This document shows, piece by piece, positions 5,314 through 57,152 of a stretch of DNA of 64,000 nt. A program made the translations under genes and the position numbers. Each line of letters opens with the position of its first letter. The first letter of the stretch is position 1. Source of the stretch: Eledone cirrhosa (lineage: Eukaryota); the NCBI GenBank assembly GCA_964016885.1, contig OZ024742.1, forward strand, positions 156,488,001 through 156,552,000, in the 5' to 3' direction. The notes beneath the pieces were generated by a model. It saw nothing but the letters and a program-made list of their open reading frames with translations. It was not told the DNA's origin and made no database searches.

Positions 5314-6351
<1,038 letters not shown>

Positions 6352-6638
6352 AAAACAAATAACGAAACGAAATTAAAATTCGTTTCGCTTCTAACTCACT
6401 TTTGTATGACTGACGCTTAAACAATTAAGTTAAAGTGTACATCTACATATGTATACGGAAGTACTAGTATGCATATAAATACACATATGTATACATATGT
6501 ACATGTACCGAGCTTTTCACTAGACACTTTACAGTGAGTGTCCAGCTAGTCTGTATGTAAACACACAGACGAACCGGGTTTTAAAGTCATACGGGTTTTC
6601 AAGGAAACACACTTCCTCTATTCTCCAGAGAGCCAGAC

Positions 6639-6691
6639 AGGAATATTGGACTAGTTGCGATGTTATTACATCTCATCAGCAATATATACCT
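6639..6691 (-). ncRNA. Hammerhead (family A) with GAAA mutated to GCAA
   Basis: Reverse complement: aggtatatattg CTGATGA gatgt aata acatc GCAA ctag TC caatattcct. Confidence 0.8.
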
Positions 6692-7223
6692 ATCTTCTGG
6701 CTTCTCCGGAGAATTGTAAAAGCACATATCGTTATATGCTTTTTCAATGAAAATCAGTAGTGGGCAGACTAATTTGCATAGAACGTGAGTCATTGTACGC
6801 GCCGGTTCAGCGGAAACGATAAAAACAAATAACGAAACGAAATTAAATTTCGTTTCGCTTCTAACTCACTTTTGTATGCTGACGCTTAAACAATTAAGTT
6901 AAAGTGTACATCTACATATGTATACGGAAGTACTAGTATGCATATAACTACACATATGTATACATATGTACATGTACCGAGCTTTTCACTAGACACTTTA
7001 CAGTGAGTGTCCAGCTAGTCTGTATGTAAACACACAGACGAACCGGGTTTTAAAGTCAAACGGGTTTTCAAGGAAACACACGTCCTCTATTCTCCAGAGA
7101 GCCAGACAGGAATATTGGACTAGTTTCGATGTTCTATGCAAATTAGTCTGCCCACTACTGATTTTCATAGAAAAAGCATATAACGATATGTGCTTTTACA
7201 ATTCTCCGGAGAAGCCAGAAGAT

Positions 7224-7276
7224 AGGTATATATTGCTGATGAGATGTAATAACATCGAAACTAGTCCAATATTCCT
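7224..7276 (+). ncRNA. Intact minimal type I hammerhead (family A), predicted GUC cleavage after 7266
   Basis: aggtatatattg CTGATGA gatgt aata acatc GAAA ctag TC caatattcct. Confidence 0.92.
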
Positions 7277-7605
7277 GTCTGGCTCTCTGGGGAATAGAGG
7301 AAGTGTGTTTCCTTGAAAACCCGTATGACTTTAAAACCCGGTTCGTCTGTGTGTTTACATACAGACTAGCTGGACACTCACTGTAAAGTGTCTAGTGAAA
7401 AGCTCGGTACATGTACATATGTATACATATGTGTATTTATATGCATACTAGTACTTCCGTATACATATGTAGATGTACACATTAACTTAATTGTTTAAGC
7501 GTCAGTCATACAAAAGTGAGTTAGAAGCGAAACGAAATTTAATTTCGTTTCGTTATTTGTTTTTATCGTTTCCGCTGAACCGGCGCGTACAATGACTCAC
7601 GCTCT

Positions 7606-7613
7606 ATGCAAAT
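7606..7613 (+). promoter_or_regulatory. Octamer motif ATGCAAAT conserved in family A/B units (candidate snRNA-type distal element)
   Basis: Also at 7136, 9257, 22485, 22630, 23039, 40100 (+) and 6772, 39657, 62275 (-). Confidence 0.5.
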
Positions 7614-7693
7614 TAGTCTGCCCACTACTGATTTTCATTGAAAAAGCATATATCGATATGTGCTTTTACAATTCTCCGGAGAAGCCAGAAGAT

Positions 7694-7746
7694 AGGTATA
7701 TATTGCTGATGAGATGTAATAACATCGAAACTAGTCCAATATTCCT
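7694..7746 (+). ncRNA. Intact minimal type I hammerhead (family A), predicted cleavage after 7736
   Basis: Identical motif exactly 470 nt downstream of the 7224 copy. Confidence 0.92.
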
Positions 7747-7962
7747 GTCTGGCACTCTGGAGAATAGAGGAAGTGTGTTTCCTTGAAAACCCGTATGACT
7801 TTAAAACCCGGTTCGTCTGTGTGTTTACATACAGACTAGCTGGACACTCACTGTAAAGTGTCTAGTGATAAGCTCGGTACATGTACATATGTATACATAT
7901 GTGTATTTATATGCATACTAGTACTTCCGTATACATATGTAGATGTACACTTTAACTTAATT

Positions 7963-8033
<71 letters not shown>

Positions 8034-8769
8034 CGTGTGTGTGTGTGTTTGTGTATATGTTGGTGAGTGGGGAAGATGGCAGTGCTGAACTACTTTCCAA
8101 TACTTCTACTGAAAGAACGACAGTGATCCTGTTCGAACATTATTATAAGGACTTTCCATACTTACTCATTAACATTTTATGCTTAGCTACGTACCCTAGG
8201 CTTAATAGAGTGTTGCTCAGTTCTTTGAACATATTTGCATGCTATTAGTAGGCGGCGCATAAGTCCTAATATAAGAGTATTATTTAATGCATAAACTGCA
8301 AGTATAATCATGTGTATACTCTTCGCATATCTACTTAATAATTCAGCCATTAACAGAGATGATTGCTCAAGTACAAGTTCTGAAATATTGATATGCCTGA
8401 ATCAGATGATCTTCATTTACTTTTGCTGAACTTCAGAGATTCTATAGTTTTGTAGAAGCGTTGATTTAATTTCGTCTCGAATAACCACTAAACCTATTAG
8501 TCCAAACTTCTCAGAGCTTTTGAGTATGAAAGCCTTATGTTTGCTGTGACGTGCTTAGGTGTTGTTTGGGTCATGGTGGCATGTTGAGACTGGTCGGATT
8601 CATGTTGCTTGGCCTTCTATCCAGATCTTCACAACCCTTTCAAACCCAGCTTGTTGTAAGACCCGGGGAAAGAACTGAAGAAACATGGATCCCCTTGTGA
8701 CTCAGGATCCTCAGAATTACCATAATTACCGGATATGCTATGCTGGTGACAGTGAAAATGGTGGTGACG

Positions 8770-9687
<918 letters not shown>

Positions 9688-10117: not shown

Positions 10118-10633
10118 ATTAAACATGTTTTAAGGTAACGCTTGACATAACTCTAGTTAAACATGATATATATTAATAATAAATTATCGTTGTAAGGTAA
10201 TTAGATTATATAATTGTTATTTTATAAATGATCTTATGCTAAATGATCTCATGCTAAATGATCTTATGCTAAATAGTTTTAAATGTCGGATTTTTCCAGC
10301 CCATATTCCCAGAGAGAAGTGTTATTTGTGGGTCCTTTCATGCATATTGCAAAATTCATTGCCACAGTATTCTTATTGTGTAAGATGCCATTCATTACAT
10401 TGGCGGTAACGCTAGAAATTCTCCTGGGTGAATTGAAGCTTGCACAAATTAAATAGCTGCAATAGATTCGTGGTCAATTTGCATATATATTACAAATATA
10501 TATACATACACAAAATGGTTACAGACACACATATACAGACATACACACACTATCACTCTCTCTCTCCCTCTCTCGCACACACAAATATGCATAAGGAAAG
10601 TATATACTTTCAGACGTTCAATCATCTGGCAGG

Positions 10634-10688
10634 AAGGAATACGGTGCTGACGATAGCTAATAAGCTTGAAACTCGTACATCATTCCTT
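10634..10688 (+). ncRNA. Hammerhead (family B) within B copy 10585-10963
   Basis: aaggaat acggtg CTGACGA tagct aata agctt GAAA ctcg TA catcattcctt. Confidence 0.78.
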
Positions 10689-10802
10689 TGTCAGTGTTGA
10701 ACAAAAAGGTCAACGATGGTTGATAAACAAAGTACGGCTTAATTCGGGATGTTTGTTTACAAACAAACCCAGCATTACAATAAATGTTCGGTAAATCCAT
10801 AC

Positions 10803-10889
<87 letters not shown>

Positions 10890-12789
10890 CATGTATGTAT
10901 ATATATACATACTACTATATGCCTGTATACATATATGTATGTATGTACATATACTTATATATACGTGTTTGCGTTTTAATTGGGTGCATATGCAGTGGAA
11001 TGCTTTGATATAATGAAGAACATAGGAGATGATCAAACTATTAGAGGAACTACCCAAAATTAGTCTTCCTTATACCTTGGACCCAGCCACTCACCGCTAC
11101 CTATGGGCCGGATTATGATCCAACGAACCCTCTGGATTATTTTTTCGCTGTTCGGCTTTATGGAACTTTTATGGAACTTTTCGTCTACTCTCTTATCTAC
11201 ACCAATACCTTTTTTTCCGTTTATACATTTCTGTTTACTTATATTTTTTATTTGAACCCTTTTTCATTATTTGTTGCATTTATTCTTTCTTATTTTTTTC
11301 TGATATTGTCTTATCTCTTCATATTCTATTTTACACCCCCATTATATAAAATACTTCTATATATTTTCGTCATGTTATTATTACTTTCTTACTTTTCTGT
11401 ATCCCATCTAATGGCAATTGATTGAAATATGTATATTGTACTACACCTAATAGTACATTCCATATATAATATATTATATATTATTCAATATCTCCTAGAT
11501 TCAGTAATAACCCCTGTTTTAATTTAATTTTATTTTTACTTTAATGTTACTTAGTTTGATTTAATTTTATCAAAAATCAGAAATAACTTCAAAAGGCAGA
11601 AATAACTTCAGCTAAGCATAACCTTTTCCTGACTATGGTTTCTAGCAAAGTTTGATATTGTGCCCACCTCTCTCTCAGAATGTATAACGCCGTAGACGTA
11701 ACCAAGAATATGTAATTTTCTGTATATATGTTTACCTTCATACTATATTCGTCGATATGTGGGCATTGGTCAGGTAATCCGTGGCCATTTAAATAACATG
11801 TTGTTAAGACTAACTTTCGCTATGAACTTGAGGGCTTGGAATTGTATGAATTAATTAATCAATTTCCCGTCCCTTGATTTTTTAAATATACTCAATCATT
11901 TGAAAACTATTTAATTACGACTTTACACTCGAATACGGGACTGGTTGAGGATAAAGCACACCAATTTAACCCTAAACGCAAAAACGCATATATACACACG
12001 AATAAACCTTGTAAAATATGAGCCATCGGAGATATCAAAAATAAAATAACTACCAATATTTAACAAATTATAGCAAACATTATTGTATACGATTAACCTT
12101 GTTATTGATGCAACATTACTACATTATATATTGTTAGTATATTTTTTCTATCTTGTCTCAGCTCCTATTTTGAGCTAGACCTATTATTATAGCTATGCTC
12201 CCCTTTAAGTACTGTCACGGTAGAGTGACTTTTCTGAAAAGCGACTGATAGATTTGAATGTTTATATATGCATAGCAGCGTAGCCAACATTCTGTTGGGA
12301 GAATATGTGTGTCAGGAATTGACCGCCCTACCCCCTGTACCGCATGGAGTGGCATTCGTGAGACGGCCTCATACCAAAAACATAACAGCTTTTTCTTTGC
12401 AGGCAGTCCCTTAGAGTTTTGTGTCACATTTGCTACAATTAGTAGAAACTATTTTACTGTTTTATGATATATTTTCCCCTTTCAAGCGATAAGGCGTCAC
12501 CCGTTTGGTTTTCCGTTGTGAATTTCATTTAGCCGTTCGTTGTAGATGAAGCCTGTGGGTAGTCTATGAATAATAGCTGTGTTAGATTGGTTTCTAATCG
12601 ACTGTTAAATGTATATCTCTTTAGACAGCCAGAACAATGAGAATGCTGGCATTTGTTTTAACGAATCTTTGATACACCTGACTGATATCGAATGCATTTA
12701 AATTCCAGTCGGTTACATCGATACCACCGTAAATATGCAATAAAACCAAGGAGAAATAATGGTCAAAAGTATACACAACGTATCATAAT

Positions 12790-18892: not shown

Positions 18893-19058
18893 GAGTGATA
18901 AATGAAATTTCGTTTCATATTTTCCGTTTATATATATATATATATATAAACGGAAAAATGAAACGAAATTTCATTTCTCACTCTTAGTACGGCTGTGACT
19001 TAAATATAAGTATGTATACGTACATATATATATGTATACAAACGTACAGTAATATGCT

Positions 19059-19092
<34 letters not shown>

Positions 19093-19319
19093 TATATATA
19101 TATATGTACGTATGGATTCACCGAACATATATTTTTATGCTCAGTGTGTTTGTAAACAAACATCCCGAATTTTTAAACAAACAACATGAACAAATGAGTA
19201 ACGATGATTGCTAGACACTGTACGGCTTAATTCGGGATGTTTGTTTACAAACATACCAAGCATTATAATAAATGTTCGGTGAATGCATACGTACATATAT
19301 ATATATGTGTGCATGTATG

Positions 19320-19394
<75 letters not shown>

Positions 19395-19440
19395 CTATTG
19401 TACGTCTTTACACATATATGTATGTATGTATACAAACTTA

Positions 19441-19479
<39 letters not shown>

Positions 19480-21910: not shown

Positions 21911-22053
21911 CATAAGTATGTATGTATACGTACATACATATATGTATACAGACGTACAGTAGCATGTATATATATATATATACATACAGGCACATATATA
22001 TATGTACGTATCAGTTTAGCGAATATTTATTATAACGTTCAACCATCTGGCAG

Positions 22054-22108
22054 AAGGGTATACGGTGCTGACGATAGCTAACAAGCTTGAAACTAGTACA
22101 TCGTTCCT
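22054..22108 (+). ncRNA. Hammerhead (family B), GUA cleavage
   Basis: acggtg CTGACGA tagct aaca agctt GAAA ctag TA catcgt. Confidence 0.85.
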
Positions 22109-22259
22109 GTGTCAGTGTTGAACAAAAAGGTGACGTGGTTGCCTTAACACCTTACGGCATAAATCAGGCTGTCCGTTTGTTTACAAACGAACAAAGCGAA
22201 TGTTATAATAAATATTCGCTAAACTGATACGTACATATATATATATGTGTGCCTTTATG

Positions 22260-22315
<56 letters not shown>

Positions 22316-22696
22316 CATATATATATATACATGCTACTGTACGTCTGTATACATATATGTATGTACGTATACATACATACTTACATTTAAGTAAGTGCCG
22401 TACTAAGAGTGAGAAATGAAATTTCGTTTCATTCTATTCCAACTTATCATTTTCGGTGCGCCTGGTCGACTGAACTCACTCGATATGCAAATTAGGCTGT
22501 ACACATATATGTATGTACGTGTACATACTTATATTTAAGTAACAGCCGTACTAAGAGTGGGAAATGAAATTTTGTTTCATTTTTTCCGTTTATTGTTTTC
22601 GGTGCACCCGGCCGATTAACCCACTCGATATGCAAATTGAGCTACTCAGCCGTTAATATACATAAGGTAGGAATATACGTTCAACAATCTGGCAGG

Positions 22697-22751
22697 AAGG
22701 TATACGTTGCTGAGGATAGCTAATAAGCTTGAAACTATTACAGCGTTCCTT
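22697..22751 (+). ncRNA. Hammerhead (family B), stem III point mutation
   Basis: acgttg CTGAGGA tagct aata agctt GAAA ctat TA cagcgt. Confidence 0.75.
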
Positions 22752-23133
22752 TGTCAGTGTTGAACAAACGAGAAAGGATGGTTGCTAGACACTAGGGATG
22801 TTTGTTTACACACACACCGAGCATTATAATAAATGTTCCATGAATCCATACGTGCATATATATGTGTGCATGTATGTATATATATATATACATACTATTG
22901 TACGTCTGTACACATATATGTATGTACGTGTGCATACTTATATTTAAGTAACAGCCGTACTAAGAGTGGGAAATAAAATTTCGTTTCATTTTTTCCGTTT
23001 ATCGTTTTCGGTGCACCCGGCCGATTAACCCACTCGATATGCAAATCCGGCTACGTATATACTTACCTGATGCATATTAACGGCTGACATTAATATGCAT
23101 AAGGTAAGTATATACGTTCAACAATCTGGCAGG

Positions 23134-23188
23134 AAGGTATACGTTGCTGACGATAGCTAATAAGCTTGAAACTAGTACAGCGTTCCTT
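23134..23188 (+). ncRNA. Hammerhead (family B), intact
   Basis: aaggtat acgttg CTGACGA tagct aata agctt GAAA ctag TA cagcgt tcctt. Confidence 0.87.
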
Positions 23189-24369
23189 TGTCAGTGTTGA
23201 ACAGACGAGCAATGATGGTTGCTAGATACTACGGCTTAATACGGGGTGTTTGTTTACAAACACCCCGAGCATTATAATACATGTTCGGTGAATCCCTACG
23301 TGCATATATATATATGTGTGCATGTATGTATATATATATATACATACTAGTGTACGTCTGTACACATATATGTATGTACGTGTACATACATGTATATATA
23401 TATAAGTATGTACACGTACATACATATAAGTGTACAGACGTATAGTACTCAGCTCGCTGTTTCGAAAATATTCTTACTTGACATTAGAGTCGCTAAGTTT
23501 ATAGCTTCTAATTTGAATGGAAAAATAGGGGTGATCTGTTGTTGTAGATGTAGCACACTGGTCCGGATAACCAAAGATGTGGGTTCGACTGTCATGTACG
23601 TCAATACTCATCTATTTCCATTTTTCCGAGGGTTCTTAACCCCCTATCAGCCTAAATAATTTCTTTATTTTCTTTAGTCAAAATACGGCGATAGCTAACA
23701 TTTCTAATAATTTCAAATCACCTCGCTGTTTCGAAAATATTCTTACATATATATATATTTTATATCGATTGATTTGTATCTTGTTAACCTGTTTGTTTTT
23801 TCGTTACTTTGGTATTGTGTGTTAGGTTTTTCCTACCACAATGTTCAATTTGTCTAGCTATTTAAACGTATATATATATGTATATATATATATATATATT
23901 TGTTTTTCTCTCCCTCTCAATATGTTTTCCCTCTCCTTTTTACATCTCCTTTCTTCCAACAGTTTAACTTAAATAAACCGTTGTTTTTTTTATTTTCTGA
24001 CACTCATTTGCATACTCACTCATAACTTTGTATCACCCTCAATGAAATATTATCTCCACTATCCAGGGAACTTCAACCGTTAAGGCTGTCCTTTTTTCCG
24101 GGTATGTCAGTATTTATTCATAAAACAAATCATTATTTTATGTAATGAAAGTGCACTATAATTTGCCTTGTTTGCCTTTGAAATATATATAATAAAATAA
24201 TCATGGTTTCATAAATATTGTTTCCATTATTGAATATTTACTCCACTAATCTGTTGAATGCTTTATATCAGTTATAACAATTTTTAAGCTTGTTGTATCC
24301 CAACAAATTAAATATAACCTCTGCATAGATTTAGCTCCTTTATTGTTGAGCACTTTAAATTGTAACTGA

Positions 24370-28778: not shown

Positions 28779-31700
28779 ATCATCATCATCATCCTCACCG
28801 TTTTACGTCCGTTCTTCCACGCTAGCATGGGTTAGACGGGTTGTCCTGTTGTGGGCAGCGTCTGGTCGGCTGACCATGCCTTGCTCATACAGGAACTGAT
28901 TTGGCTTGATTTCTACAGCTGGATGCCCTTCCTAACACCAACCTCTTTTACAGTGAGTGCTGGGTGCTTTTTCGTGGCGCCTACACGTCCACTTTACAGT
29001 GTGGGCTGGGTGCTTTTTTGCCGTGGCACCTCCACGACCACCTTGCAGAGTGGGGTGTGGGGGTGGGTGTGGGTGTGGGTGTGTGGGGGTGGGGGACATA
29101 TTGTCTATATGCTTCAGCTTGTACCCATGGGAGGTCGGGTACTCTGTATTACTGCGTGACGCCAGAGGTCACGGTCGTGTGTCATTGCCTTTGAGAGGTG
29201 TAATTGAGTAAGGTCGGCTTTTATCACCTCATCCCAGGTCATATTGGGTCTCCCCACTCCGCGGTTTCCATCGACTTCTAGTGCTCTGCACCTTTTTATG
29301 CAGCTGTCATCCTTCATACGCATCACATGTCCATACCAGCGCAACCGCCTCTCTTACACACAGCATTTGATTGCTCTTATGCTCAGTCTCTCTCTCAATT
29401 CATTTATGCTTTGTCGTTCACGTATATTACTGTTACACATCCATCGGAGCATGCAGGCTTCGTTTCTCTCTAATCTACGTAAGTCTTCCACCTTCTGCGC
29501 CCAGGTCTCACTATCATGCAACATCGCTGTTCGGATACACGCATCATACAGTCTGCCTTTCATACTGAGGGAGAAGCCTTTTGCAGCTAGCAGTGGTAGT
29601 AGTTCCCTAAATTTCTTCCATCCCGTTCTTACCCTAGTTATTGTACTTTCTGAACACCCACCTCCGCTGCTAATTCGGTCTCCTAGGTAGCAGAAGCTGT
29701 CTACTGTTTCTACAGAGCCCTCCCAGAGATTGGTGGTAATTGTTTCCTGTGGCTGTTTGCTGCTTGCTGTCCCAGCACAGCTGATGCATGTGAAGTCTAC
29801 AGTCTTAATTAAGCTTCCTGAGATCCCTGCTACATCTCTTGTGTACCCATTGTTTGCATTTGGGGCAGAGAATGGAGTTCCTACCTACACCTTTCCTACA
29901 TACTGAGCAAGGCCATTTCCCTGAGGCGATCTGGGTTCTGTTTTCTCGTCTACTTACAAGGACCTTAGTCTTTGTCATGTTGACTTTGAGACCCTTTGTT
30001 TCTAGTCCCTGCTTCCAAGTTTGGAATTTATTCTCTAGTTCTACCATATATTCAGCTATAAATGCGAGGTCATCAGCATACAGGAGTTCCCATGGGCGTC
30101 CGGTCTTAAACTCCTCCGTTATTGCCTGCAGGACTATGATGAACAGGAGGGGGCTAAGAACAGAGCCCTGGTGGGCCCCAACCTGTACGCTAAATTCCTC
30201 GCTATACTCATTGCTAATCCTAACTTTGCTGACTGCTCCCATATACATGGCTTGTACCACTTTCACAACCCATTTATCTACTCCTAGTTTTCTAAGAGCC
30301 TACCAGATTACAGCACGTGGAACTCTGTCAAAGGCTTTCTCAAGGTCGACAAATGCCAGGTAGAGTGGCTTACTTTTAGCTAGGTACTTTTCCTGTAACT
30401 GCCTCACAAGGAAGAGGGCATCAGTGGTGCCTCTTCCTGGTACAAACCCAAATTGCATCTCGTCTAGTTTCACCCGGTCCCTAATCAACTGTGCTATAAC
30501 TCTTTCTGTTACTTTCATGACCTGGTCCATCAGCTTTATACCTCTATAGATTCCTCTATCAAGTGCATCACCTTTACCTTTGTAGCAGTTGACAATGATG
30601 CTACTGCACCAATCTTTTGGTATGACACCTTCTAGTATTACCTGGTTAACAATACGTGTGGTTATAGTGTGACCTACAGACCCGGATGCCTTCAGCATCT
30701 CGGCAGCTATACCCGATGGACCGGTTGCCTTCCCCATCTTCATATTTTTGATTGCCTTACTTACTACGTTGCTGCTGACTTGAACTGCTGGCCCCTCTAT
30801 AGGGTCTTCTTGGGGGTAGGGTCTCTTCTTCCCATGCATTCTCCTCATTTAGTAATCTATCATAATGACTCTTCCATGCATCTTTCTTCTCAGCACTTGT
30901 GAGGGCAAGCTCACCTTTATCATTCCGGATACACTTCTCTCCAATGACATCACAACTCTCTCTGACACACTGCCTCGCAATCTTGACCACCTCCTGTTTC
31001 TGGTCCTCACGTTGCAAAACATGCTTGAATTGTCTATCCTCTGCTTCCTCCTAGCTAAGTATACTTGTCGCCTAGCTTCCCTCTTGATCTCTATGTAATG
31101 TACCCTGCTCCCCCCGTTCTTCCATTCTTTCCATGCCTGTCTCTTGGCCTTAACTGCCTCATCTACCTTATTGTTCCACCACCAAGTCACTCTCCTCCTG
31201 CTTGAGGTCTTACTCCAGCCACATACCTCAGCCGTCGCCTCTAGTAAGTTATTTTTTAGGAACTCCCTGTTCTCTTCTACATTGAATGTCTGTATCTGTT
31301 CTTCTTTACTATCGTAGGCGTTGAGTAAAATATCTTTAAATCTGTTACTGGTTGAGGGGTCTTTCAGCTTCTCCTGGTTGGCCTCTGTTTCCAGGTTCGT
31401 CCAGTTCTGACTGTGAGATCGCTGACAACTAAGCTATGTTGGGATGTACATTCCTCACTAGGGAAGGCTTTTGTGTTTACGACCGTCCATCTGTCACGTC
31501 CTCTGATCAGGATAAAATCTATCTGACTAGAGTGCTCCCCTGATCTATAGGTGATCAGGTGGTTGTCGGGTTTTTTAAAGTTTGTGTTACATATCGACAT
31601 GTCATTGGCGTCAAAGAATTCTAGAAGTCTGAATCCTTCCTCATTTCTTGTGCCAACCCCATGGCCTCCATGTACTCTATTGAAAAGCCGTCGCAGTGTT

Positions 31701-38510: not shown

Positions 38511-39339
38511 AAACGACAGAAAGCCGGAAAGAAAATATTCTTACCATTTTTCTTTTTAGTTGCAAAACTGTATAGGTAATTCAGTGCACTAGTTACATTA
38601 TCTACACTGAGGTTTTTGCCTAACATTAAGTGTTTTAACTAGACACACACAGATAGAAGAAGCAACCAACTAGTGATAGGTAAATAAAGATGTAAATAAA
38701 TAAAAACACAAACACATGAATGTAATGAATGCGCAGCAGACGTAAACAACACCAAGCTCACAGCTCAGAAAAACAAGATGGTGTAGGTCAGATAAATGGA
38801 AAGACACAAAATAAATAAATCTCTGAGGAGCTCTCGTAATGAAACGAAAACCAACAGGTGGGTGTGTTCTTATTGGCAATATGACTCTCGTAAAATATAA
38901 TAATTACTACATTATTTATTGGATTTACATGTTTCATTCCACTCCAAATGATGATATTATGAATACCTTTGTTGAGAAATCATCGGAATCAATTATATAT
39001 AACACATAAAAGAGAGTAAAATACATATATATTATATATAACTGATTCTGAGGATATCTTTACAAAGGTTTTGAAAATAACATCCTTTACTGAAGAATGG
39101 AACATATGTAAATCAAATAAGTAATATATTAATGTTGAAACCTTGGTGACATTTTCGTTTGTGTTATGTATGGTATGTGGTTTACAACAAATCCACGATG
39201 ACCGGACGTGAATGTACTTTGCACAACGATTCATTAATCTAGATATTGAAAACAAATCACATCAGAGCTTTGAATATCTGAATACCTTATATTGTTGTAT
39301 TATCACCTCACATAATTTACCTATATATATATATACATT

Positions 39340-40199
39340 AATATAAGTATGTATGTATACGTACATACATATATGTATACAGACGTACAGTAGCATGTAT
39401 ATATATATACATACAGGCACACATATATATATGCACGTATCAGTTTACCTAACATTTATTATAAACAAACAAACAGCCTCAATTACGCCGTACAGTGTTT
39501 AGGCAACCACGTCACCTTTTGTTCAACACTGACACAGGAACGATGTACTAGTTTCAAGCTTATTAGCTATCGTCAGCACCGTATACCTTTCTGCCAGATG
39601 GTTGAACGTCCGAAAGTATATACTTTCCTTATGAAAATTAACGGCTGAGCAGCCTAATTTGCATATCGAGAGAGTTCAGTCGGCCAGGCGCACCGAAAAC
39701 GATAAATGGAATAGAATGAAACAAAATTTCATTTCTCACTCTTAGTACAGCACTTACTTAAATGTAAGTATGTATGTATACGTACATACATATATGTATA
39801 CAGACGTACAATAGCATGTATATATATACATACAGGCACACATACATATATGCACGTATCAGTTTACCGAACATTTATTATAATGCTCGGTTTGTTTGTT
39901 TGTAAACAAACAAACGGCCTGAATTACGCCGTACAGTGTTTAGGCAACCACGTCACCTTTTTGTTCAACACTGACACAGTACGTATACATACATACTTAC
40001 ATTTAAGTAAGTGCCGTACTAAGAGTGTGAAATGAAATTTCGTTTCATTCTATTCCATTTATCGTTTTCGGTGCGCCTGGCCGACTGAACTCACTCGATA
40101 TGCAAATTAGGCTGCTCAGCCGTTGATTTTCATAAGGAAAGTATATACTTTCGGACGTTCAACCATCTGACAGAAAGGTATACGGTATAAGGTAAAGGT

Positions 40200-40261
<62 letters not shown>

Positions 40262-40364
40262 TACTGTACGTCTGTATACATATATGTATGTACGTATATA
40301 TACATACTTACATTTAAGTAAGTGCCGTACTAAGAGTGAGAAATGAAATTTCATTTCATTCTAT

Positions 40365-40400: not shown

Positions 40401-40477
40401 AATGTATATATATATATGCATATAGAGTCTTATGAAAATGGAGTCTTATTTAAAAAAAATATATATATTTATTTGGT

Positions 40478-40517
40478 TCCTTTCCCGGTTTCGCAGTTCT
40501 TTTGCTTTTCAAAAGGA
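40478..40517 (-). ncRNA. U3-A8 variant hammerhead in PLE pLTR; sister copies 40917-40957 and 47976-48015 (+)
   Basis: Consensus of three copies: cctt TTGAAAA gcag aagaa ctgc GAAA ccgg TA aagg. Confidence 0.65.
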
Positions 40518-43500
40518 GAGTTCAGATGGAGGGTCTGTGGTTTTTTCTCGCATCTGGTTGGTCCTTGAATGCTACTTGTTTTATATGGAAAAAAGTGGCT
40601 CGAAACGCCAGGTTTTTAGAGAAGCAATTTGATTGGTTTGTTAATAAGTATAATACATTTCGCGCCAGTTCACGTTACAAAGTTCTTCGAGTGACTGCAT
40701 CAACCAAGGAAACTTCACTCATATATGAAAAAAAACAACCTGAGCCTTGTTTGAAGAACTTTGTAACGCGAACTGTCGGGAAATTTATTGTTGACCAACC
40801 AATCAAATTACTTCTCTAAACACCTGGCGTTTCGAGCCACTTTTTTACATATAAAACAAGTAACATTCAATGACCAACAATATGTGAGAAAAACCACATA
40901 CCCTCAATCTCAACTCTACTTTTGAAAAGCAGAAGAACCAAGAAACCGGTAAAGGTACCAAATAAATATATATATATTTTAGAAAAAAAGACTTCAGTTG
41001 CATTTTCTATTTCATCTTTTTTTCTTTATACAGTCACTCGTCTAGGACACCTTGGTTAATTTTCATTTTGTAAAAAAACCTCACTTGCTAATACATACCC
41101 ACCACACGAAGACCGAAAATGCCAGTAAAGTCTCAACAAAGCAACAACTCACTGAACCAGGACATCTTAAATGAACGTAAAGAGATTACCTGTAATCTTT
41201 CAATTTTGACCAGCAAAGTGGATCAAATACATATCTATAAAAAGGGACCCCACTAAGAAACAGAAAATACCCAAGAGACGAATATTACTCCAACATTAAC
41301 TAAACTAATCGAAACCATTGAAACAGCAATGCTCCAAAAACTGGGAGATGTCCACTCACTAAAAAACACCCTAATCGTTATATGGACTCAAAAGCTCACA
41401 GCCCGCAAATTCGCCTTTTAGAATCTCATAAAAATAATTACAAGGCAAACATATATGAAAAGTGGCTAAATTCTACCCCAATCATCCTCCCCCAAAAATT
41501 CCAAATAAAACCCATCCCGAATGAACCAGAAAACCAACAAAGTTTTAGGGAAAATATGGCGTTAGAAAAAAAAAATAGAAATAGAAATGTTGCGATTAAG
41601 AGCCAACTCCAACAAAGAAATATTCAAATCAATCGACCAACAGATGAAAACAGAAATCTCAAGGCACTCTGAAGGCCTACTGTATGAACAAACCTGAAAA
41701 CATTGGAAAGAAAATTGTGAGGAAGAAAATCCAACATCCCTCCAGCGATGCTAAAAAAACGCCACCTGGTTCAACAACTACGAATTGGATTTCGAAAATG
41801 AAGAACATACAGGTAACCCATTTTTAAAAGGAACTAAAACTCACACACCACATGCACAACAAATAACCAAAAAAAGTAACAAAACGTCCAACATACCCCC
41901 AGCAAAACTATGACGATAATCCCAGAACCCATAGACAAAACTATAACCCTACTAACAAAAACCGAAGATCCCCCAACACAAGACAGGACCCGATTCGCAG
42001 ATCACAACCCACACAAAACCTATTCCAAAACCGTAGATCCAAAACCTGTTCCACAATCTTAGATCCCAACCCACACAAAGGAACAACATCTACAACCCAG
42101 ACTATCAACAAACCGAACCTCAATACGTCGGAAACTTCTATACAAGACTACACAACAACAGTGGAAATGCCATTAGATATAATAATACCATTGAAAAAAC
42201 ATTCCAGAAAAATCATTTTTTGGACCAAGGCACCCGGTGGCACAAACTGCTTTTGAAAAACCGAAAATAATCAACCTTTCCAATACAAACCTCTCAGCCC
42301 AACAAGTTAAAATTCTCTCCAAAGGACTGAAATGCACACCAACACCTCAATGACATAAATGACGATATCTCACACTTCTGTAGAAAATTACGTCTCACAG
42401 AGGAATTCTTTGACAAGGAGAATAACGACCAATCAATTGTACGGAATAAAAGCAGCTTCAACCCAACAAAAGGTAGAAACAGAGTTTTGGACAAATGTTG
42501 TGACCACATAGCTACTTTCCCATACAATGAACTACCGCAACCTAAACCCAAACCCAACACGATTCGAAGGAAATAGGATATTATCCATGTACTAAAAAAC
42601 AATACGGACATTTTAATTAAGGAAGCGGACAAGGGAAGTACTGTTGTCATTATGGATGCTGAAAAATATAAACATGATATGTTCTCTCTCTTACAAAATA
42701 CTAATTACTATGAAAGAGTAAAACACTACAAGCAATCAAACACAATGACCAGATTAAACACACTGCTTTGTTGATAGCAGGAAGACTTAACTAAAAAGGA
42801 ACGCGATTATTTACACATTTTGCATAAAACCAGCAAACACTACGGTCTTCCAAAAATCCACAAGTGTAAAATAATTAACGATGCCTGTAAACAATCCGCT
42901 TCAGCCTGCGTGAATACACAATAACCCACATACCTTAAATTAAGACCAATTGTAGCGGGCCCACAATGAAACACACAGATTGAACAACTTTATAGACATA
43001 CTACTAAAACCAATTCTCAAACACTTACCAAGCTTTGTAAGAGACGATCTGGACCTCTTAAACCACCTCCCCAAACATGTCAACAACGACACTATTATTG
43101 TGTATTTTGATGTAGTGAATCTCTACACAACGATCCCACACCAATAGAGACTAGACGCAATGAGATAGCTGGCGGATAAGAAAAAAGCTTCATCACCGAG
43201 GGATTACAATTTATCTTACAGAACAACTTTTTTGATTTCGATGGCAGTACTTACAAGCAAATATCGAGGACTGCGATGATTACAAAAGCCGCTCCAACTA
43301 ATGCCAACTTAGTCATGCCATACTTAGAAGTCCAGATATATGTACAGTCCAAATCAAAATAAGGATTGAACTTCTTCAAATACTTATCAGAGAATTGGAA
43401 ACGCAACTTGGATGATTGCCTCATTCTTTGGTCCCACACACTCGACCAAATGAATGATTTGAAACATTTAATTAACGGCATTAATAACCACATTCAATTC

Positions 43501-43564: not shown

Positions 43565-46047
43565 CAGTGGGTCCTCGATATACGGTAGTTCTTTATCCGG
43601 TAAATTCACAGATACGGTTTTGGGTAATTACTACCATCAATTCTATTTACGGTAAAAAAAATTCACAGTAACGGTTTTTGGTCATGTTTTGTTTATATTG
43701 TACCGTAGAGCCACCTGTAGTAGCAATACATTCCCCCTTGAATTCGTGAAACTGACTGCTATTCGAATTCTAGGAAAATTGTGTTACTACTGCTATCATA
43801 CTAATTGACCTTACCGAGAAACTGGCCAATAACGAGCGAGTTCAGATATCGGTCGATGACGTCATAACTCTTAACTGATCACTTCAGTTCGGCAAACTAG
43901 CGCGTCCTCTCAGTGAGAGAATGTTTGCCGAACTGAAGTGATCAGTTAAGAGTTATGACGTCATTCAAAGTAAGATAAAACCTGAAGGCGTGTTTTTGGA
44001 GCATAATTATTGCGCCATATCTTATAACCCCATATCTCATGGCCCCAAACCATCCTGCGAATAATGCTGATGCAGATGGAAAGGTCAAACGTATGAGGAA
44101 GAGCCTGACTTTGGAGATAAAGCTTGACATTTTGAAAAGGAAGGAACAGGGACAAGGTACGTGCACCATAAGTTGTAACTTAGGCCTAGCCCAGTCTACA
44201 ATCTAGACTGTTTTAAAAAATAGTGAAGCTGTCAAAAAAGCTGAGGAGAATGCTACGAGTCTACATAGTAAATTGTTGACCAAAAATCGTGTGCCGATTA
44301 TGGATAGGATGGAAAGGTTGCTCAAAATTTGGATCGACGACCAAAAACGTCAAAATATGTCTCTGTCTTTAAATGTAATCAGTCAGAAAGCATTGTCCCT
44401 TATTGACAGGCTCAAGACTGACATGGGGGGGGGGGGAATACTTTGTATTCAAGGCAAGCAAAGGCTGGTTTGATAAGTTCAAACGACGTTCGAGTCTTCA
44501 CAAAATAAATGTTACAGGTGCCGCTGCCAGTTCCTACAAAGAGAGTGCTGAAATATTCAAAGCAGAGTTAGAGAAATGCATTGCACAGAAAGGGGTACAG
44601 CAAAATACAGGTTATTAAGTATGATAAAACAGGATTTTATTGGAAAAAGTTGACCACTAATACTTATATTGACAAGGAGAAGAAAAGTGAGAAGGGGTTC
44701 AAAGTCTCAAAGGACCGTGTTACTCTGTTACTAGGAGAGAATGCAGAAGGAGATTTAAAGCTAAAGCCACTCATTATCTACCATTCTGAAAACTCAAGAA
44801 CACTTAAGCAATACCTACCAGTGATATGGAAGTCTAATAAGAAAGCATGGCTGATCACTTCAATTCACCAGGACTTTTTCACCTCATCTCTGTCACCAAC
44901 CTTTAAGGAATATTCATTAGCTAACAACATAGCCAACCGTTTTCTGCTATTAGTGGACAACGCCCCCAGCCACCCACGGGCAATGGAAGACTGGTCAGAA
45001 ATTATCGAGGTTTTGTTTCTTCCCCCAAACACCACAGCTCTAATTCAGCCGATGGATCAAACAATCATCAAAACATTTAAGGCATACTACCAGCGGAGAA
45101 CCATGAAGCAGCTGATAAGGGACACAGATGTGCTTGACAAGACCACGATCAGGGAATGGGGGAAATTGTACAACATCAAGCACGGGTTAGACAACATCAA
45201 GGCATGTTGGGAAGAAGTGAAGCAGTCTACCATGAACATGGCCTGGAAGCAATTATGGCCAGCATGTGTGAATGACTTCCAAGGTTTTGCTGAGGACATT
45301 GGTGCGATAAAAAAAGATATTGTAAATCTCTGCCATAGAGCTGGCTTCGATGGTGTTAATGATGATGATGTGCAAGACCTTTTGGAAAGCCACGCTGAAC
45401 CTAATCCAATGATGAACTCATAGAACTAGACAAGGCGATAGAGGAGACAGAAAAAGAAGAAGAGTAGGAAGAAGAATCTGTGCGTGGCTTGGACATAAAA
45501 ACTCTAAGAGAATGTCTCGGGAGTATCGAAACAATCTTAGAATCCCCGAAAGAGCGTGACCCCAACCCTGCTAGGAGCAGCAAATTGGCTCAAGATGTCG
45601 ATAAAGAGCTCAAGATTTACCAAAAATGTATGAAGTCAATAGAAGCACCGCCAAACAGTCCTCCATCTACTCTTTCTTCAAGTCAGTCACACCTGCCAAC
45701 CATGCTACAGCTGGCCCTTCAGAATCCACTGCAGTCAACGAGTTTGTTGGTTTTGAGCCTTCCACATCACCCTCATTCTCCCCTGCCATCTCGGCCCAAG
45801 ATGAGTAAGGGCTGTACCCCACACTGTCCTTTAGCCTCGGAAGGGACACATGAAGAGGCACATCATCTGATGGAATACGCGGCATGTGTAAGGTATAGTA
45901 AATAAAAAAGAAAACATTATTTCTTTTCTATAGGGATGAATTTGTTGATGTGCTGGAACGCATCCCTATCTATTTCATGTTATAATGGGTTCTTTATACG
46001 GTAAGGGTTTCAGGAACGCATATATACCGTATATCGAGGACTCACTG
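43565..46047 (+). mobile_element. Tigger/pogo DNA transposon, 23-bp TIRs, TA TSD
   Basis: cagtgggtcctcgatatacggta ... taccgtatatcgaggactcactg, flanked by TA; removing it rejoins the PLE RT. Confidence 0.95.
44039..45808 (+). pseudogene. Tigger transposase (CENP-B HTH plus DDE_1), with stops and frameshifts
   Basis: RKSLTLEIKLDIL, MERLLKIWIDD, FKASKGWFDKFKRR, DKTGFYWK, LLVDNAPSHP, FLPPNTTALIQPMDQ. Confidence 0.93.
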
Positions 46048-47343
46048 TATATATTGAAACTGACATACACTACAAAACAAATAGATTCCAAACAATACCT
46101 GCTATTCACCTCCAACCATCCAAAGTACACGAAGACGAACATTCCTTTTAACTTGCAAGAACGATTTGCACAATTGTCTCCAATTATGAAACGCGAAATA
46201 AAAGACTTTAAGAATTAAAGGAAATTCTACTTGAGAGAGAGTACCCACTATTACTAATAAATAATGGAATAGAAAGGGCTAAAGCAATAGGCATTGATGA
46301 ATTACGAAAACAGAAACAAATTCAAGGTACGTCCAATATTCTATCATATATCTCAACACACAGCCCAAGAAATGCGGAAACTTACAAAACTATTTACAAG
46401 AACATCCCACTATTGAAACAAGACCCAAGAATGAAAAAAAGCCCTTGAAACACATAAAATAATCAAAAGCAAAAGACAACCGAATTCACTGAAAACATTA
46501 CACACCGATACCAAATTACTACCACAAACCCACAACCAACTGTCAAAAAATTGTGGAACATGCACTCACCTCATTGAAGGCAACACGTATACATTTCAAT
46601 CAGGACAACATTTTGCTGTAAAAAATCACTTCACATGCTCATCAAAAAATCTAATTTAAGCCATTAAATGTAAAGGATGCTATGAAGATTATATAGGACA
46701 AACTAAGCTCACACTCAGAAACAGAATGACAGTTCATCGCCAACAATTACGAGATCCAACCTCGAGACAGATATAACTAAGCGCACATCTAGACATATGC
46801 GCAAGTAATAAGACACCCAAATTCAAAGTCTTTCCGTTTCATCTTTGCGCTGACAATACAACAGAACATATACGAATAAATAAGGAACATATGTTCATTC
46901 AAAAATATTTCTACTAACGGAATCATCCCCCCCCCAACAAAAATACACAAAATATATATTCTCTTCATCTTAACATGCTAACCATACTCCCACACACACA
47001 CAACATCCATGCACACACACAATACACCTCCCACCACAACTCCCTCCCCATTTCTACTAATAGAATCAGTTTCCTACACACATACACACACAAAATATAT
47101 ATATTCTCTCCATCTTAACATACTCCCCCACACACACACAACTCCCTCCCTCATTTCTACTAATAGAATCATCTTCATATACACACACACACACGCACAA
47201 GCACACAAATAAACATACATATCTCTACTTTCTTTATTTTAATAGAAAGTCTGAATTCGGAGACCCCAGCGAACCAGCCATATTGACTGAACCAAAACAA
47301 TTCTCCCATCCCATTTCTCTTGACCATTATATTTTGTTTGTCA

Positions 47344-47523
47344 GGTGGATTGGCAGTATCGGTAGAGGGTCGGACGTCATGCTTTCCAGCATAGTTACGT
47401 CCCTTTACGATCTGAGTTCAAGTCCAGCCGAGGTTAACTTTGCCTTTCATCCTTACGGGTCGATAAAATAAAGTACCAGTAATGCACTGGGTAATTGCTG
47501 GCCTTGTGCCTAAAGTAGAAACA
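47344..47523 (+). mobile_element. tRNA-derived SINE inserted in the PLE 3' region, 18-bp TSD
   Basis: TSD attatattttgtttgtca at 47326 and 47524. Confidence 0.92.
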
Positions 47524-48687
47524 ATTATATTTTGTTTGTCATAAAATTCTCTAAAAGATTACAAAATAAATTCCCAAATACGGGCGCGGACTTTAATGAA
47601 CTTGTTCACATGACAGCCATACTTTCATTTATAACCAATCAAATTACATTTATAAAAAAAGCCTTCGTAAGCCCCTTTTTTAGGTAAAAAGAAATTCAAA
47701 CAAACTGGCGCGAAAGCTGATGTGCTTATTCACGTGACTGCATCAACCAACCAAACTTCACTCATATATGAAAAAACAACCTGACTCCCCCCCCCCCCTT
47801 GTTTGAAGAACTTTGTAACGCGAACTGACGCGAAATTTATTATACTTATTGACCAACCAATCAAATTACTTCTCTAAAAAACCTGGCGTTTCTAGCCACT
47901 CTTTTCCATATAAAACAAGTAACATTCAAAGACCAACCATATGTGAGAAAAACCACAGACCCTCCATCTCAACTATACTTTTGAAAAGCAGAAGAACTGC
48001 GAAACAACTAAAGGAACTAAATAAATATATATATTTTTTAAAAAATATGACTCCAGTTGGATTTTCGATTTCGTCTTGTATTCTTTATACTTTCACTCGT
48101 GTAGGACACCTCCGTTATTTTTCATTTTGTAAAGAAACCTCATTTTCTAATATATATATATATATACATACTGATATATACACACAGGAAGTCACGCACA
48201 TACAAACATAACAATTCATTATTTTAAAATTGTGATTCAGTTTCTCCACTGTCATCTCGCATAGTATTTGATTAGTTAATATAGATTAATATTTATCAAA
48301 ATATCATTCAATGTGTATAGAGAGATAAAATAATTATTTTTGCTGCAAATGGAAAATTCTCTAAACATTTGAAAACCTTCAATCTACGTCTGGAGATACT
48401 AACTCACTTAGGATGAATAGATTTTAAGATATTCCTTCGCTAGCAGCTGCAGATTTTTTGTAGATTCTCCATTAATGCACATATTATCATGGAAACAAGC
48501 GATGTAAGAGGAATAATTGTGAAAAGAAAATAAGTGTCATGTTTTCTACGTCTCTCTTACAATTACGTAAGTTCCTGAAGGCATACATTCATTATATTAT
48601 CGCAATAAGAAAAATGTTATAACATAACCATGATTTAAAAAACAAATTAAATACTAGATACGTCAACCACCACGATGATAATAAGAA

Positions 48688-49587: not shown

Positions 49588-51985
49588 CATGCATGTCAAA
49601 CTGAGGATCCCTCAAGGACCGCATGGTTCACATATGTCTTGCCTGAGGGCCACATACAACAACTAACTGTGCACATTACAACCAATTAAAGTCATTTAAT
49701 GAAATTTATTGCCGAAAAATTTGTGATTTAAATTTAGAAACATACAATGTACATTCATTTTTTTTAGCAGCATTCACGAATACAAAGTAATGAAATGATT
49801 TGAGAAAAAAATAAAATATTAAATGGCAACATATACTTGCAGCTTGCAACAGCAACAAATACATTATACAAACATTACAACAGTTCAAACCTGAACATTT
49901 ATTTGCAACTATTCAACCATTTAATCCTGGGGCTTGACACCTCTTTTTGTTGAAAATCTTTGGTATGGCTGGCTGAAATATCTGTACAGTTCTGACTTTG
50001 ATCAGGGATGACATGTGTTGATAAGTCAGCCTTATTCTCTGAGAGGCTTTTGTTAATTTCATGAAGGAAAATAACTGTTCACAAACAGGTAGAACCAAAC
50101 ATTGCTATAATCTTTGTGGTAAACTTTCTCAAGTGTTTTAACTTTTCAGGAAGTGATGGAAAGAAACCAGGTATCCTCATTTCAAGATACTTTGTTCTTA
50201 GTGTAGAATTTGACTTCATTTCCAATACTTCCATCTGCAGGCTTTCTCCTGCCTTGGCAACATCAAAGGTAATAGTGCTGAGAATAATGCAAACTAACGT
50301 TCAAAAGATGAGAAATCACAAAATCGTACCTGAAATTCCTTTGATAACAGTTCCAGGTGACTGTCATACTTAGCACAGCTAAGTACAGAATCAGTATTGA
50401 CAGTGCTTTTCAGCTCTTTCCACTTAGGAAAATGAACTAAATTTTCATTTGACAACTGTGACTTCCATAAACTTAGTTATCTAATGAAGCACTTGATGTC
50501 ATCATACAACTGAGTGATGAGTTTGTATTTACCATGTAATTTCAAATTTAGATCAGTTAATTGTGCAATAATATCCCCATCAAAATTCAGATCTTGGAGC
50601 CAACTTTCCTCTTTTATTTCATTTGTGTGTTGACCTTTTATCTTCAAAAATATAATTATTTCCTGTCTCAACCAGTAGAACATTTTCAGCACTTTATGAC
50701 ATGACAACCAACAGACTTCTGTGTATTATTGTCATCAGTGAACTGATTATCCATATTTTCCAACAACTGGCTGGACTGACGGCGGTTGAGAGCACGGCCT
50801 CTGATATAGTTCACTGTCTTTGAGACCAAGCTAAGCACAGGATGCAATTTAAAACATTTGAACACAAATGTTGCTGATGAATAATACAATGGAAATGTAC
50901 AATTGATGAATCTCGATAAGAGTTTTCTATTTTTCTTCGTAACTTGGCAGTAACACCATTATAGCTGCCACCCATATTCGCATCTCCATCAGGAGATGAG
51001 CATGCAAGTTTACTCAAATCAAAGCCATAATCATGCTGAAGCTGCTCGACTTTCTCAAAGATGTCCTGGTGTGTTGTAGTGTTATGCATGGGGAGCAGTT
51101 CAATCAATTCTTCATAAATATTAAATTCACTGTAACATGCCCTTATTAAAACTACCAGCTCTGATATTCCAGTGATGTCAACGGTCTCATCAATAGCAGT
51201 ATAAACATGTTCAAACTTTGATGATATAGCCTTCATCTGTTGTTTCAGATCACCTGCCATTTCATCAATCCGTTCAGCAAAAGTGTTCCTGGTTAATGAA
51301 CTGTCTTTGAATAACTGTGATTTATCTGGACATACAATTTCAGCTGTTTTTACAAGGCATTGCATTAAAAATCTCCTTCAATGTAAGATTTCTCAACCAT
51401 GACAATCATTCAGCTGAGTTCATAGCTTGCAGTAATCGAAGCAACATTCTCTTCCTGAATTTACATGTTGCTGTGTCAAGTTAGCCTTCAATTCCTTGTG
51501 TCTTCAAACACGCTTTGGGCCTTCATATTTATCTTAAGATCGATGCTTCGTTTTATAATGCCTTTTCACATTGTACACTTTTGGCGTGGCGATGCAGCTG
51601 TTGCAAATTAAACAGTGTATATTTCCGTTCCCTATTGTGCAAAAATACTGCAATTCCTACTTTTCTTGAAACACTCGGCCTTCTTCGTTCAATTTTCTTT
51701 TTCACTTAGCTGGAGGAGCACTAACCATTTTAAAACAAAAAAAAATTGAAATTTTAAAAGAATGTTTTCTGTTTACAACTTTTAATGAGCTGCGCGTGAT
51801 TCGTCGGAAGGGTAAAGTGATTGACAAAAATCGCACAAAAAAAAATCGTATCGAAAACATTTTTTACTATATAGTACGAAGATAAAAAATGTTCGAGCTA
51901 TAAAAATCTATGTGTGGGCCGCAGGTGTGCTTGGAAAGGGCCAAATGCGGTCCAAAACGAGCGTGTAATTTATGGACACCCAAGT
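49588..51985 (-). mobile_element. hAT transposon (SPIN/GTF2IRD2-like), decayed
   Basis: Degenerate TIRs catgcatgtcaaac and tatggacaccc; transposase relic between them. Confidence 0.85.
49913..51728 (-). pseudogene. hAT transposase (GTF2IRD2/SPIN-like)
   Basis: EGRVFQEK, LTRNTFAERIDEM, AIDETVDITG, HFHCIIHQQ, LNLKLHG, CEQLFSFMK. Confidence 0.9.
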
Positions 51986-53881: not shown

Positions 53882-55297
53882 CTACTATTTTTTAAGGCAA
53901 TGCAAGCAACAACTATCTAATAATTAAATGATCATAGTTTATTACTGACAAGTGATTGACATTTTAAAGTTCTTTTGAGTATAATTGCAATCTAGTTGTG
54001 GCAACTGGCTTAATGACAAAGCTAGTAATTCATGAATGCATTTGAGATGATTAGTGCATAATAGTGAATTGGTGAAACTTGTGCATTTCAATGGTGTTAC
54101 AACAATAGATGTAAGTTATATAGTAGTAATACTTTATCATTTTAACTTTTTAGAATGGACAAAAAACCATGCAAAGAAATGACTTTGACTGCAGTGATTC
54201 TCTTCAATTTACTTACAAAGCAAAACGTGGTCAAATACCTTAATTCCTCATAAAATGCACCTATGAATCGGAAGCCATCACATATATCTATGGATATAGA
54301 GAGTTGTTCACACTGGAAGACCATCACTTCATTTGTGACTTCATCAGTTATCTCCACAATTATCTCAGACACCCAATGCCATTGATGAGAGGTGATCCAA
54401 TGTGTGAACATGTAACTAATCTTATAGAAGTTGTTATCGACCACCTGTCTTTTAGTGACATTTGACTGATTTGACTGGTAATGATGTATTTTTAAAACGT
54501 ATGTCTACATTCTTGTTACTATTTTAAGGCAATGCAAGCAACAACTATTTAATAAAATTTAAATTTAAAAATGATCATTGTGCATTACTAGTATGATGAC
54601 ATTTTATTAACTCACAAAATTAGTCAGTCAGCCATAGAACAAGGATCAGGTGGCAAAAATATTGTCAAAAAGTTGTGTCAATTTAAGATTTCCAACATTG
54701 TTCAAATGAATCATATCTGGTTTGAAGTCAGATTTGTCAAATTTTGACCAATTTTCAATGTTGTGAAGATTGGGCAAGTTCAACTTTTGAATCATTTCTT
54801 TCATGCAGTAATTAAACTTTTCCAAACGTCGTCATTTCTGGATCACCTCCCCTAGCGTCACGCTTACTACTCACTCACTTGAACACAAGATTTATCAGCA
54901 AACTTTGATTATAAACTTTTTCCCGCTGGACCAAATTTCTAGATGTTTACGCCAAAAGATACGTAATGATCTACTGTTCATGCTCATATAAGTTCTATCT
55001 CAGTTAAATAAAGTAGAGCCGCGCTGTACTGTCGTAAACAGACGATTGCCAACGAAAACACGACCACAACAATATTACTAAACGGACTACGTCCGTTTAG
55101 GATATAACCACATTAACAAAAAACACTAGTAAACTAAGATAGAATACAATAACCAAAACGCAGTCACCCAAACGCGAACACACACCAAACACTATACACA
55201 CGCAAAAGCATGCGCAGAGAAGAAGACACAAATAAATAAATAAATAAACAGATAAAATAGAAATGGCGTTGACATCAAATACAACAGGAGGAACATA

Positions 55298-55351
55298 ATA
55301 GTACCACTGATGATGTTGAAGATGTTCAACGAAATAACTTTGTTAGACTAT
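55298..55351 (+). ncRNA. Decayed hammerhead (family D-like context)
   Basis: tacca CTGATGA t gttgaa gatg ttcaac GAAA taac TT tgtta; perfect 6-bp stem II. Confidence 0.55.
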
Positions 55352-55595
55352 ATATATGAGTTTATATATATATATATTATGTCAGAATGTTTGACCGTTG
55401 GTCAGTCAATGTTAAACATTGAGTACCAAATGAATTAACTGTGTTAATATAAAAGATACAGAACCGAAAAGCAACGAAAGAGTGTGTAGGTTCTGTTATT
55501 ATTTCTGGTAATATTATTACAACAATATGACCCACCCCAAATATAACAATATTTGTTTGGACACACGATTTCATAACAAAAACTTCACAAAACAA

Positions 55596-55651
<56 letters not shown>

Positions 55652-55653
55652 AT

Positions 55654-57067: not shown

Positions 57068-57152
<85 letters not shown>

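Follow-up and report, generated by a model that had tools for sequence, protein, structure and literature searches.

The return of animal retrozymes to the genome has been ascribed, in the earlier proposals available to us, to the enzymes of Penelope-like elements (PLEs) and to circular templates, on arguments from co-occurrence and homology. PLEs are named as candidate drivers of metazoan non-LTR retrozymes by Cervera and de la Pena (2020; PMC7229834). PLE insertions themselves have a recognizable signature: they are truncated at the 5′ side, carry an inverted 5′ arm and have a tail at just one of their two ends (10.1101/2021.04.23.441226; PMC3846280). The tail has been explained by two internal reverse transcriptase (RT) start sites, both strands of an AT-rich target being cut and extended (PMC11167929). 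At the RNA level, a short palindromic helix III that allows a dimer fold is the canonical metazoan type I hammerhead layout (PMC4209133). In the axolotl motif HHR_Amex2, helix II has a U.U mismatch at its base, and axolotl motifs with this mismatch cleave weakly as monomers (PMC7229834). A squid genome paper gives only a count of 235 Rfam hammerheads.

The window analysed here is a 64,000-nucleotide stretch of Eledone cirrhosa DNA (contig positions 156488001–156552000), and the genome, of 3.0 Gb, is AT-rich and microsatellite-rich. Two repeat families, termed A and B, have copies in the window. Family B is a protein-free repeat carrying a type I hammerhead motif, and PLE RT/GIY-YIG proteins acting in trans probably copy it into (TA)n. 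PLE enzymes are its likely movers because the copies end at two fixed sites in TA repeats, often as back-to-back pairs.

Two related families and their hammerhead motifs

Six B-type cores (CUGAnGA) are present in the window, with starts at 9345, 10647, 22068, 22710 and 23147 on the forward strand and at 39576 on the reverse strand. A preliminary description had listed the same six motifs, which are real, at numbers that fall ∼13 nt upstream of the cores, or on the 3′ side for the minus copy. It had also spoken of five loci; the six motifs lie at four, and a fifth B locus (18893–19446) exists but has no motif. The variation noted at that time is present as described: stem I is acggtg/catcgt or acgttg/cagcgt, N7 is U, C or G, and the cleavage base varies (UA/UU). 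A-type cores are found at 7236 and 7706 (+) and at 62182 (−), with a damaged inverted A copy near 6658.

Cuts are predicted after 22098, 22740 and 23177, with spacings of 642 and 437 nt. The second spacing agrees with the preliminary figure. This interval is longer than usual because a 35-nt inverted duplication (23053–23087) lies inside it; array units elsewhere in the genome measure 416–430 nt, and those of one subfamily, the second, 484–502 nt.

By alignment, A and B descend from one unit. They are identical in 289 of 408 columns with a global z of 15.7, and none of 500 dinucleotide shuffles reaches the score; the reverse complement gives z −1.5. Outside the ribozyme and the microsatellite, the A/B segment still stands at z 8–12 with a score of 66, whereas the best of 500 natural segments from the window scores 36. 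Similarity is lower after the cut, where 1 and 6 of 500 controls reach the score of the segment. The blocks that the preliminary description had found common to both families are thus collinear beyond chance, and the homology, which it had proposed to check against shuffled sequence, extends along the whole unit. Predicted circular folds of A and B place hairpins in similar order. Both families are abundant: exact pattern matches genome-wide number 37,614 for A and B together under the strict pattern and 25,117 for B only, and controls give 0. The homology, the 37,614 matches and the fit to the description of non-LTR retrozymes support the earlier suggestion that A and B are diverged subfamilies of one abundant retrozyme lineage.

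The B unit is ∼420 nt long and non-coding, with a GC content of 0.36–0.37 and a longest ATG frame of 48–51 amino acids. It has no open reading frame and no LTR structure, and its GC content lies below the 45–50% limit (PBS and PPT motifs were outside the search). The units occur in tandem with one hammerhead each and are dispersed at high copy. The predicted circular fold is highly self-paired (z −6.5 to −8.1 against 60 shuffles), the microsatellite hairpin contributing part of this. Elsewhere in the genome (C1:5738324–5752446), 31 A-type motifs form an array on one strand with a spacing of ∼466 nt, and the next motif lies on the opposite strand. B pieces are also carried by contigs of two runs from other organisms (X5 and X6), and in X6 the site-2 (AT)n end described below is found in two contigs.

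The type I hammerhead core of B has the CUGAnGA, GAAA and UH elements and stems I–III. Stem I has 6 bp and a bulged extension. Stem II has 4 bp above a U.U mismatch, at a place where family A has G-C. This 10.1–11.1 mismatch is found in all six window motifs, as U.U except for C.A at 9345, and the G10.1-C11.1 closing pair is unpaired in 51 of 61 distinct rows, these being of B; the G-C pair is present in the eight A rows. Stem III has 1–2 bp and is palindromic, so that two copies can be drawn as a 6-bp dimer duplex with a predicted −6.8 kcal/mol. At 22710 and 10647 the palindrome is lost and the predicted values are +1.8 and −0.3 kcal/mol.

Among 61 distinct copies of A and B, 92% of 976 cells are paired. 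The covariation score is 0.219 against 0.087 for shuffled rows, none of 500 shuffles reaching it, and 0.065 at most when the alignment is slid. Pairs changed on both sides number seven, a count that 62 of 500 shuffles also reach. Stems I and II therefore covary between A and B, the score beating the shuffles, although most of the changes come from the single A/B split and few are independent events. Within B, one stem I pair appears in U.G, G.U and A-U forms. The compensatory changes in stems I and II, together with the palindrome that both families have retained, imply that the fold has been under selection. Core conservation (5/505 versus 2.4% elsewhere) is biased by the choice of loci and was set aside as evidence.

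An Rfam scan at the gathering cut-off gave no matches, and no hammerhead match for B was present among 149 rows with E up to 5. Family A is matched by HH9 at 34–35 bits (E 5e-7 to 9e-7), below the cut-off of 52. Thus, on account of one mismatch, ∼25,000 ribozyme-like motifs can escape Rfam. Motif searches with looser stem II spacers returned mostly background and damaged A/B copies.

Insertion ends and the locus at 21912–23447

B copies have variable 5′ ends; they do not stop at the ribozyme cut but run across it. The 3′ ends, on the other hand, are at two fixed sites ∼64 nt apart (64–69 nt): site 1 at unit position ∼210 and site 2 at ∼275. (TA)n comes directly after almost every end that lies on a site, and an end would fall on a site by chance in ∼8% of cases. 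End classes were assigned by eye, and all sets were selected for an intact ribozyme. The first set comprised the 30 best matches to a B segment, including the locus 21912–23447 itself (L001). With that locus and three open arrays (L006–L008) left aside, L002–L030 show 14 ends at site 1, 11 at site 2 and one elsewhere, that is, 25 of 26 forward 3′ ends on site. The second set, the first 30 pattern matches on C1 (L081–L110), gave 22 distinct insertions after overlaps were merged, 15 of B and seven of A; 10 end at site 1, 10 at site 2 and two elsewhere (20/22 on site). The third set, 40 further C1 stretches with 44 chains, one duplicate merged, contains 43 consecutive insertions. Its 27 one-armed copies have 10 ends at site 1, 13 at site 2 and four elsewhere; with the 16 two-armed copies included, 50 of 59 outer ends are on site, seven are off and two are unresolved. 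All seven window loci end on site 1 or 2.

The two sites are used in a nearly fixed combination. Among two-armed, head-to-head copies with both ends on site, 30 of 32 have one end at each site and none has two ends at site 2 (p 1e-7 at 0.5). The rule holds in 27 of 27 copies outside the window and in three of five inside; the exceptions, each with two site-1 ends, are 21912–23447 and the 9-kb locus (8769–9680). In another eight two-armed copies, an end lies off the sites or could not be assigned. Loose (AT)n ends at site 2 are also seen in contigs of runs X1, X4 and X6, the first two of which possibly come from the source sample. Target-site duplications, expected to be >4 bp for non-LTR retrozymes when present, are unreadable because the flanks are mostly (TA)n.

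Five of the 19 one-armed copies in the first set (L002, L010, L014, L021 and L024) begin at an octamer-like word at unit position ∼310. Transcription may start there, or the word may offer microhomology to the TA flanks. An snRNA-type promoter, for which newt satellite 2 is cited as a precedent, was considered on account of an octamer kept in A and B. It is not supported: an exact octamer is missing from the 330 nt upstream of U2 genes at four loci, and the similarity of the U2 proximal region to A/B is confined to AT-rich sequence.

The locus 21912–23447 had been presented as a tandem. It does contain repeated B segments, but these come from two subfamilies and are interrupted by three inversions, so that the locus is composite rather than a plain tandem. 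It begins with an inverted, B2-like arm (21912–22036, −), whose outer end is at site 1 and which equals 22202–22383 outside the TA run. A forward B2-type segment follows (22034–22499, stem I acggtg/catcgt) with a hammerhead core at 22068–22098 that has the U.U stem II base and a palindromic stem III. Three shared bases join it to a forward B1-type segment (22497–23050, stem I acgttg/cagcgt), whose core at 22710–22740 has a damaged stem III. Beyond the 35-nt inverted duplication (23053–23087, −) lies another forward B1 segment (23090–23392) with an intact B1-type core at 23147–23177; it ends at site 1 and is followed by a short TA run. Across that run is a ∼50-nt mirror copy of the site-1 end, placed tail-to-tail (23397–23447, −). 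The composite could have arisen by template switching or by serial insertion.

Such tail-to-tail mirror copies of the element end are found across TA runs at 18893–18946 and 23350–23447, with the same end site as the facing arm, and snap-back synthesis is possible. To the right of the element, a 26-nt direct repeat is present at 23452–23477 and 23723–23747. A stretch at 23547–23600 looks by eye like tRNA A and B boxes; ARAGORN found no tRNA.

The window holds further insertions. At 8769–9680 (+) a B insertion with a short inverted arm carries the core at 9345–9375, with C.A at the stem II base, and has both outer ends near site 1. A one-armed, 5′-truncated copy at 10584–10960 (+, core 10647–10677) ends at site 1. 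The head-to-head insertion without a ribozyme at 18893–19446 has outer ends at site 2 (18946) and site 1 (19446) and a mirror piece at 18893–18931. The two-armed insertion at 39330–40360 (−, core 39576–39546) has one end at each site and lies inside the TA run in which a PLE pseudo-LTR (40432–40688) ends. Family A is represented by a two-armed insertion at 6349–7967, whose arms end within (TA)n at unit positions 300 and 231, and by a copy with a stem II variant at 61850–62410 (−), which ends at site 2.

Penelope-like elements as probable movers, and the template

The two fixed 3′ ends and the inverted 5′ arm with a tail on one end only are what would be expected of PLE-type inserts, and by this insertion anatomy PLE-type mobilisation of B is well supported. 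Against it, the B tail is ∼64 nt long, compared with the 30–40 nt described. Potential drivers are resident in the same genome, which has long RT+GIY-YIG open reading frames and 10,596 GIY-YIG candidates, with many matches among the 150 that were scored. Copies of these resident PLEs also end at two alternative sites before (TA)n, and B copies lie inside TA runs at PLE ends in L055, in L069 and at 39–40 kb in the window.

The following sequence of events may be envisaged. B units would be transcribed as multimers, in which two adjacent ribozymes would pair via the palindromic stem III and then cut. The monomers would probably be ligated to circles. A PLE dimer would cut both strands of a TA run, and each DNA end would prime reverse transcription at one of the two internal sites, each just 3′ of a predicted hairpin. 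The two cDNAs would then join head-to-head. Tentatively, and with somewhat less confidence than doubt, each B insertion may thus document an event in which a PLE dimer primed from the two ends of a TA break, used two different internal sites of a single small RNA circle made by the ribozyme, and rolled round that circle. Both families would have kept a cis architecture of two hairpin-adjacent start sites and a dimer ribozyme, with no detectable homology to any driver. If this is true, a minimal substrate is at hand for testing circle-templated retrotransposition.

Evidence on the template comes from the cut site and from the arms. Among ∼25,000 copies, junction-type matches to the cut site number 98, and two control positions give 84 and 69; 22 of 30 inspected cut-site junctions are true and eight are small indels, and rough per-position rates show no excess. 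Cut linear monomers are therefore rejected as the main template, and circles or uncut multimers are likely, since 5′ junctions are not enriched at the cut. In three of 30 inspected copies (L183, L185 and L192) the single base missing is the one just 5′ of where the cut is predicted, which may be a scar of ligation or an ordinary indel. The arms of one insertion share variants at 0.55 versus 0.05 between loci, mostly at the subfamily level. One insertion (L139) has nine units 0.4% apart, and two others (L152 and L170) have private changes common to both arms; in an older set the sharing is weak, at 5 of ∼35. One template per insertion fits these observations, and a circle and an uncut multimer would fit equally. 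In B1, a bias from A-to-I editing is not seen (A>G 41 versus T>C 31 in the older set, 28 versus 28 in the later set).

Perhaps, then, PLE proteins move B from uncut multimeric or read-through transcripts, with the ribozyme incidental to mobility and no circle formed. This is a possibility of some substance, if short of probable. Ribozyme mutants of the anole PLE insert normally, unprocessed RNA being the main substrate (PMC11167929), and eight of nine frog dimers are described as showing no cleavage (10.64898/2026.07.22.740005). The weakened stem II of B points the same way, and the lack of a junction excess fits such transcripts equally well. What such a role leaves unexplained is the selection on the fold implied by the compensatory changes and the kept palindrome, and near-identical, multi-unit two-armed copies such as L139 fit rolling round one molecule. 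The circle is slightly favoured over the uncut multimer as template, as the fold appears to be maintained by compensatory change while the copies span the cut.

A second question is whether B could be the pseudo-LTR of an unsampled autonomous PLE, the copies being its 5′-truncated ends and tandem solo repeats. The end anatomy of B is the same as that of PLEs, frog retrozymes are homologous to pseudo-LTRs (10.64898/2026.07.22.740005), and the GIY-YIG candidates scored were 150 of 10,596. Yet no pseudo-LTR homologous to A or B was found at 62 PLE loci (50 GIY-YIG loci and 12 of an eighth family, the eight families being grouped by eye), and A or B matches inside the sampled loci are separate insertions. 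B units abut with no open reading frame between them, and the autonomous-PLE structure, an RT+GIY-YIG frame between pseudo-LTRs, is absent from the unit. Moreover, 5′ flanks differ between loci, and the first 100 rows of the looser-spacer searches brought up no further abundant family sharing this stem III palindrome. A pseudo-LTR origin is accordingly unlikely.

That B is a DNA-level element (a MITE, a Helitron-type element or a satellite) with the hammerhead as a relic is very improbable: its two-armed copies resemble terminal inverted repeats, long arrays exist, and a hairpin followed by CTAG resembles Helitron ends, but 27 of 43 insertions have a single arm and their 5′ ends vary, arm lengths vary, a fixed tail distinguishes one outer end from the other, and B does not end at CTAG.

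Remains of PLEs and other elements are scattered through the window. An inverted pair of resident-PLE pseudo-LTR ends at 1730–2153 contains a minimal hammerhead (core 1883, −), in which stem II again rests on U.U and stem III is palindromic. Three different PLE ends are clustered in TA runs at 55250–57072: a hammerhead at 55307, whose PLE family has a GIY-YIG frame upstream in L126, L127 and L134, and stretches at 55752–55980 (core 55793) and 56007–57072. Pieces of another PLE family are at 40432–40688 (−), 40746–41096 (+) and 46645–48155 (+). Three resident PLE families appear by eye to have U3-A8 core-variant hammerheads with a palindromic stem III; this core variant has been published for schistosome PLEs. 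Other remains are a fragmented LINE with RT and a PHD-like finger (29208–31433, −), a DDE_1 transposase fragment (44572–45905) and a stretch that looks by eye like a hAT-type transposase fragment (50811–51377), which has no Pfam match.

Comparison with described retrozymes and PLEs

Family B appears to work like the non-LTR retrozymes and belongs there on all points that can be tested by sequence except the G10.1-C11.1 pair. Like the metazoan elements described by Cervera and de la Pena (2020; PMC7229834), it has tandem, non-coding, low-GC units with one type I hammerhead each. As in the axolotl, two sister families are found in one genome, one of them with U.U at the base of helix II (HHR_Amex2 in that species; PMC7229834). 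The B unit is slightly longer than those retrozymes, 416–502 versus ∼170–400 nt, and has a long microsatellite hairpin. The available text of PMC7229834 has no description of fixed ends at two sites, of arms joined head-to-head or of targeting to (TA)n, all of which B shows. A literature search found no paper on tail-type ends for retrozymes or on family B itself; subscription papers, repeat databases or supplements may hold one.

Like EN+ PLEs, B shows 5′ truncation and partial tandems, has an inverted 5′ arm, is tailed at one end only, uses AT-rich or microsatellite targets and holds a hammerhead in the repeat (PMC11167929; 10.1101/2021.04.23.441226; PMC3846280). It differs from them in having no open reading frame and a tail of ∼64–69 nt. 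B RNA reads UUAU or UUUAU at its two start sites and could pair with nicked TA DNA; the start of the anole element is non-homologous.

The vertebrate non-LTR retrozymes (Li, Clavereau and Pollet, 2026; 10.64898/2026.07.22.740005) are likewise non-autonomous, co-occur with EN+ PLEs, and are found as monomers, dimers and arrays. In the available account, the vertebrate case is argued from co-occurrence and pseudo-LTR homology, whereas the case for B, for which no homologous pseudo-LTR was found, is argued from insertion anatomy. The insertion ends of B carry the PLE signature with a near-strict rule of one end at each site, and they name two RNA sites and a DNA target for an in vitro test.
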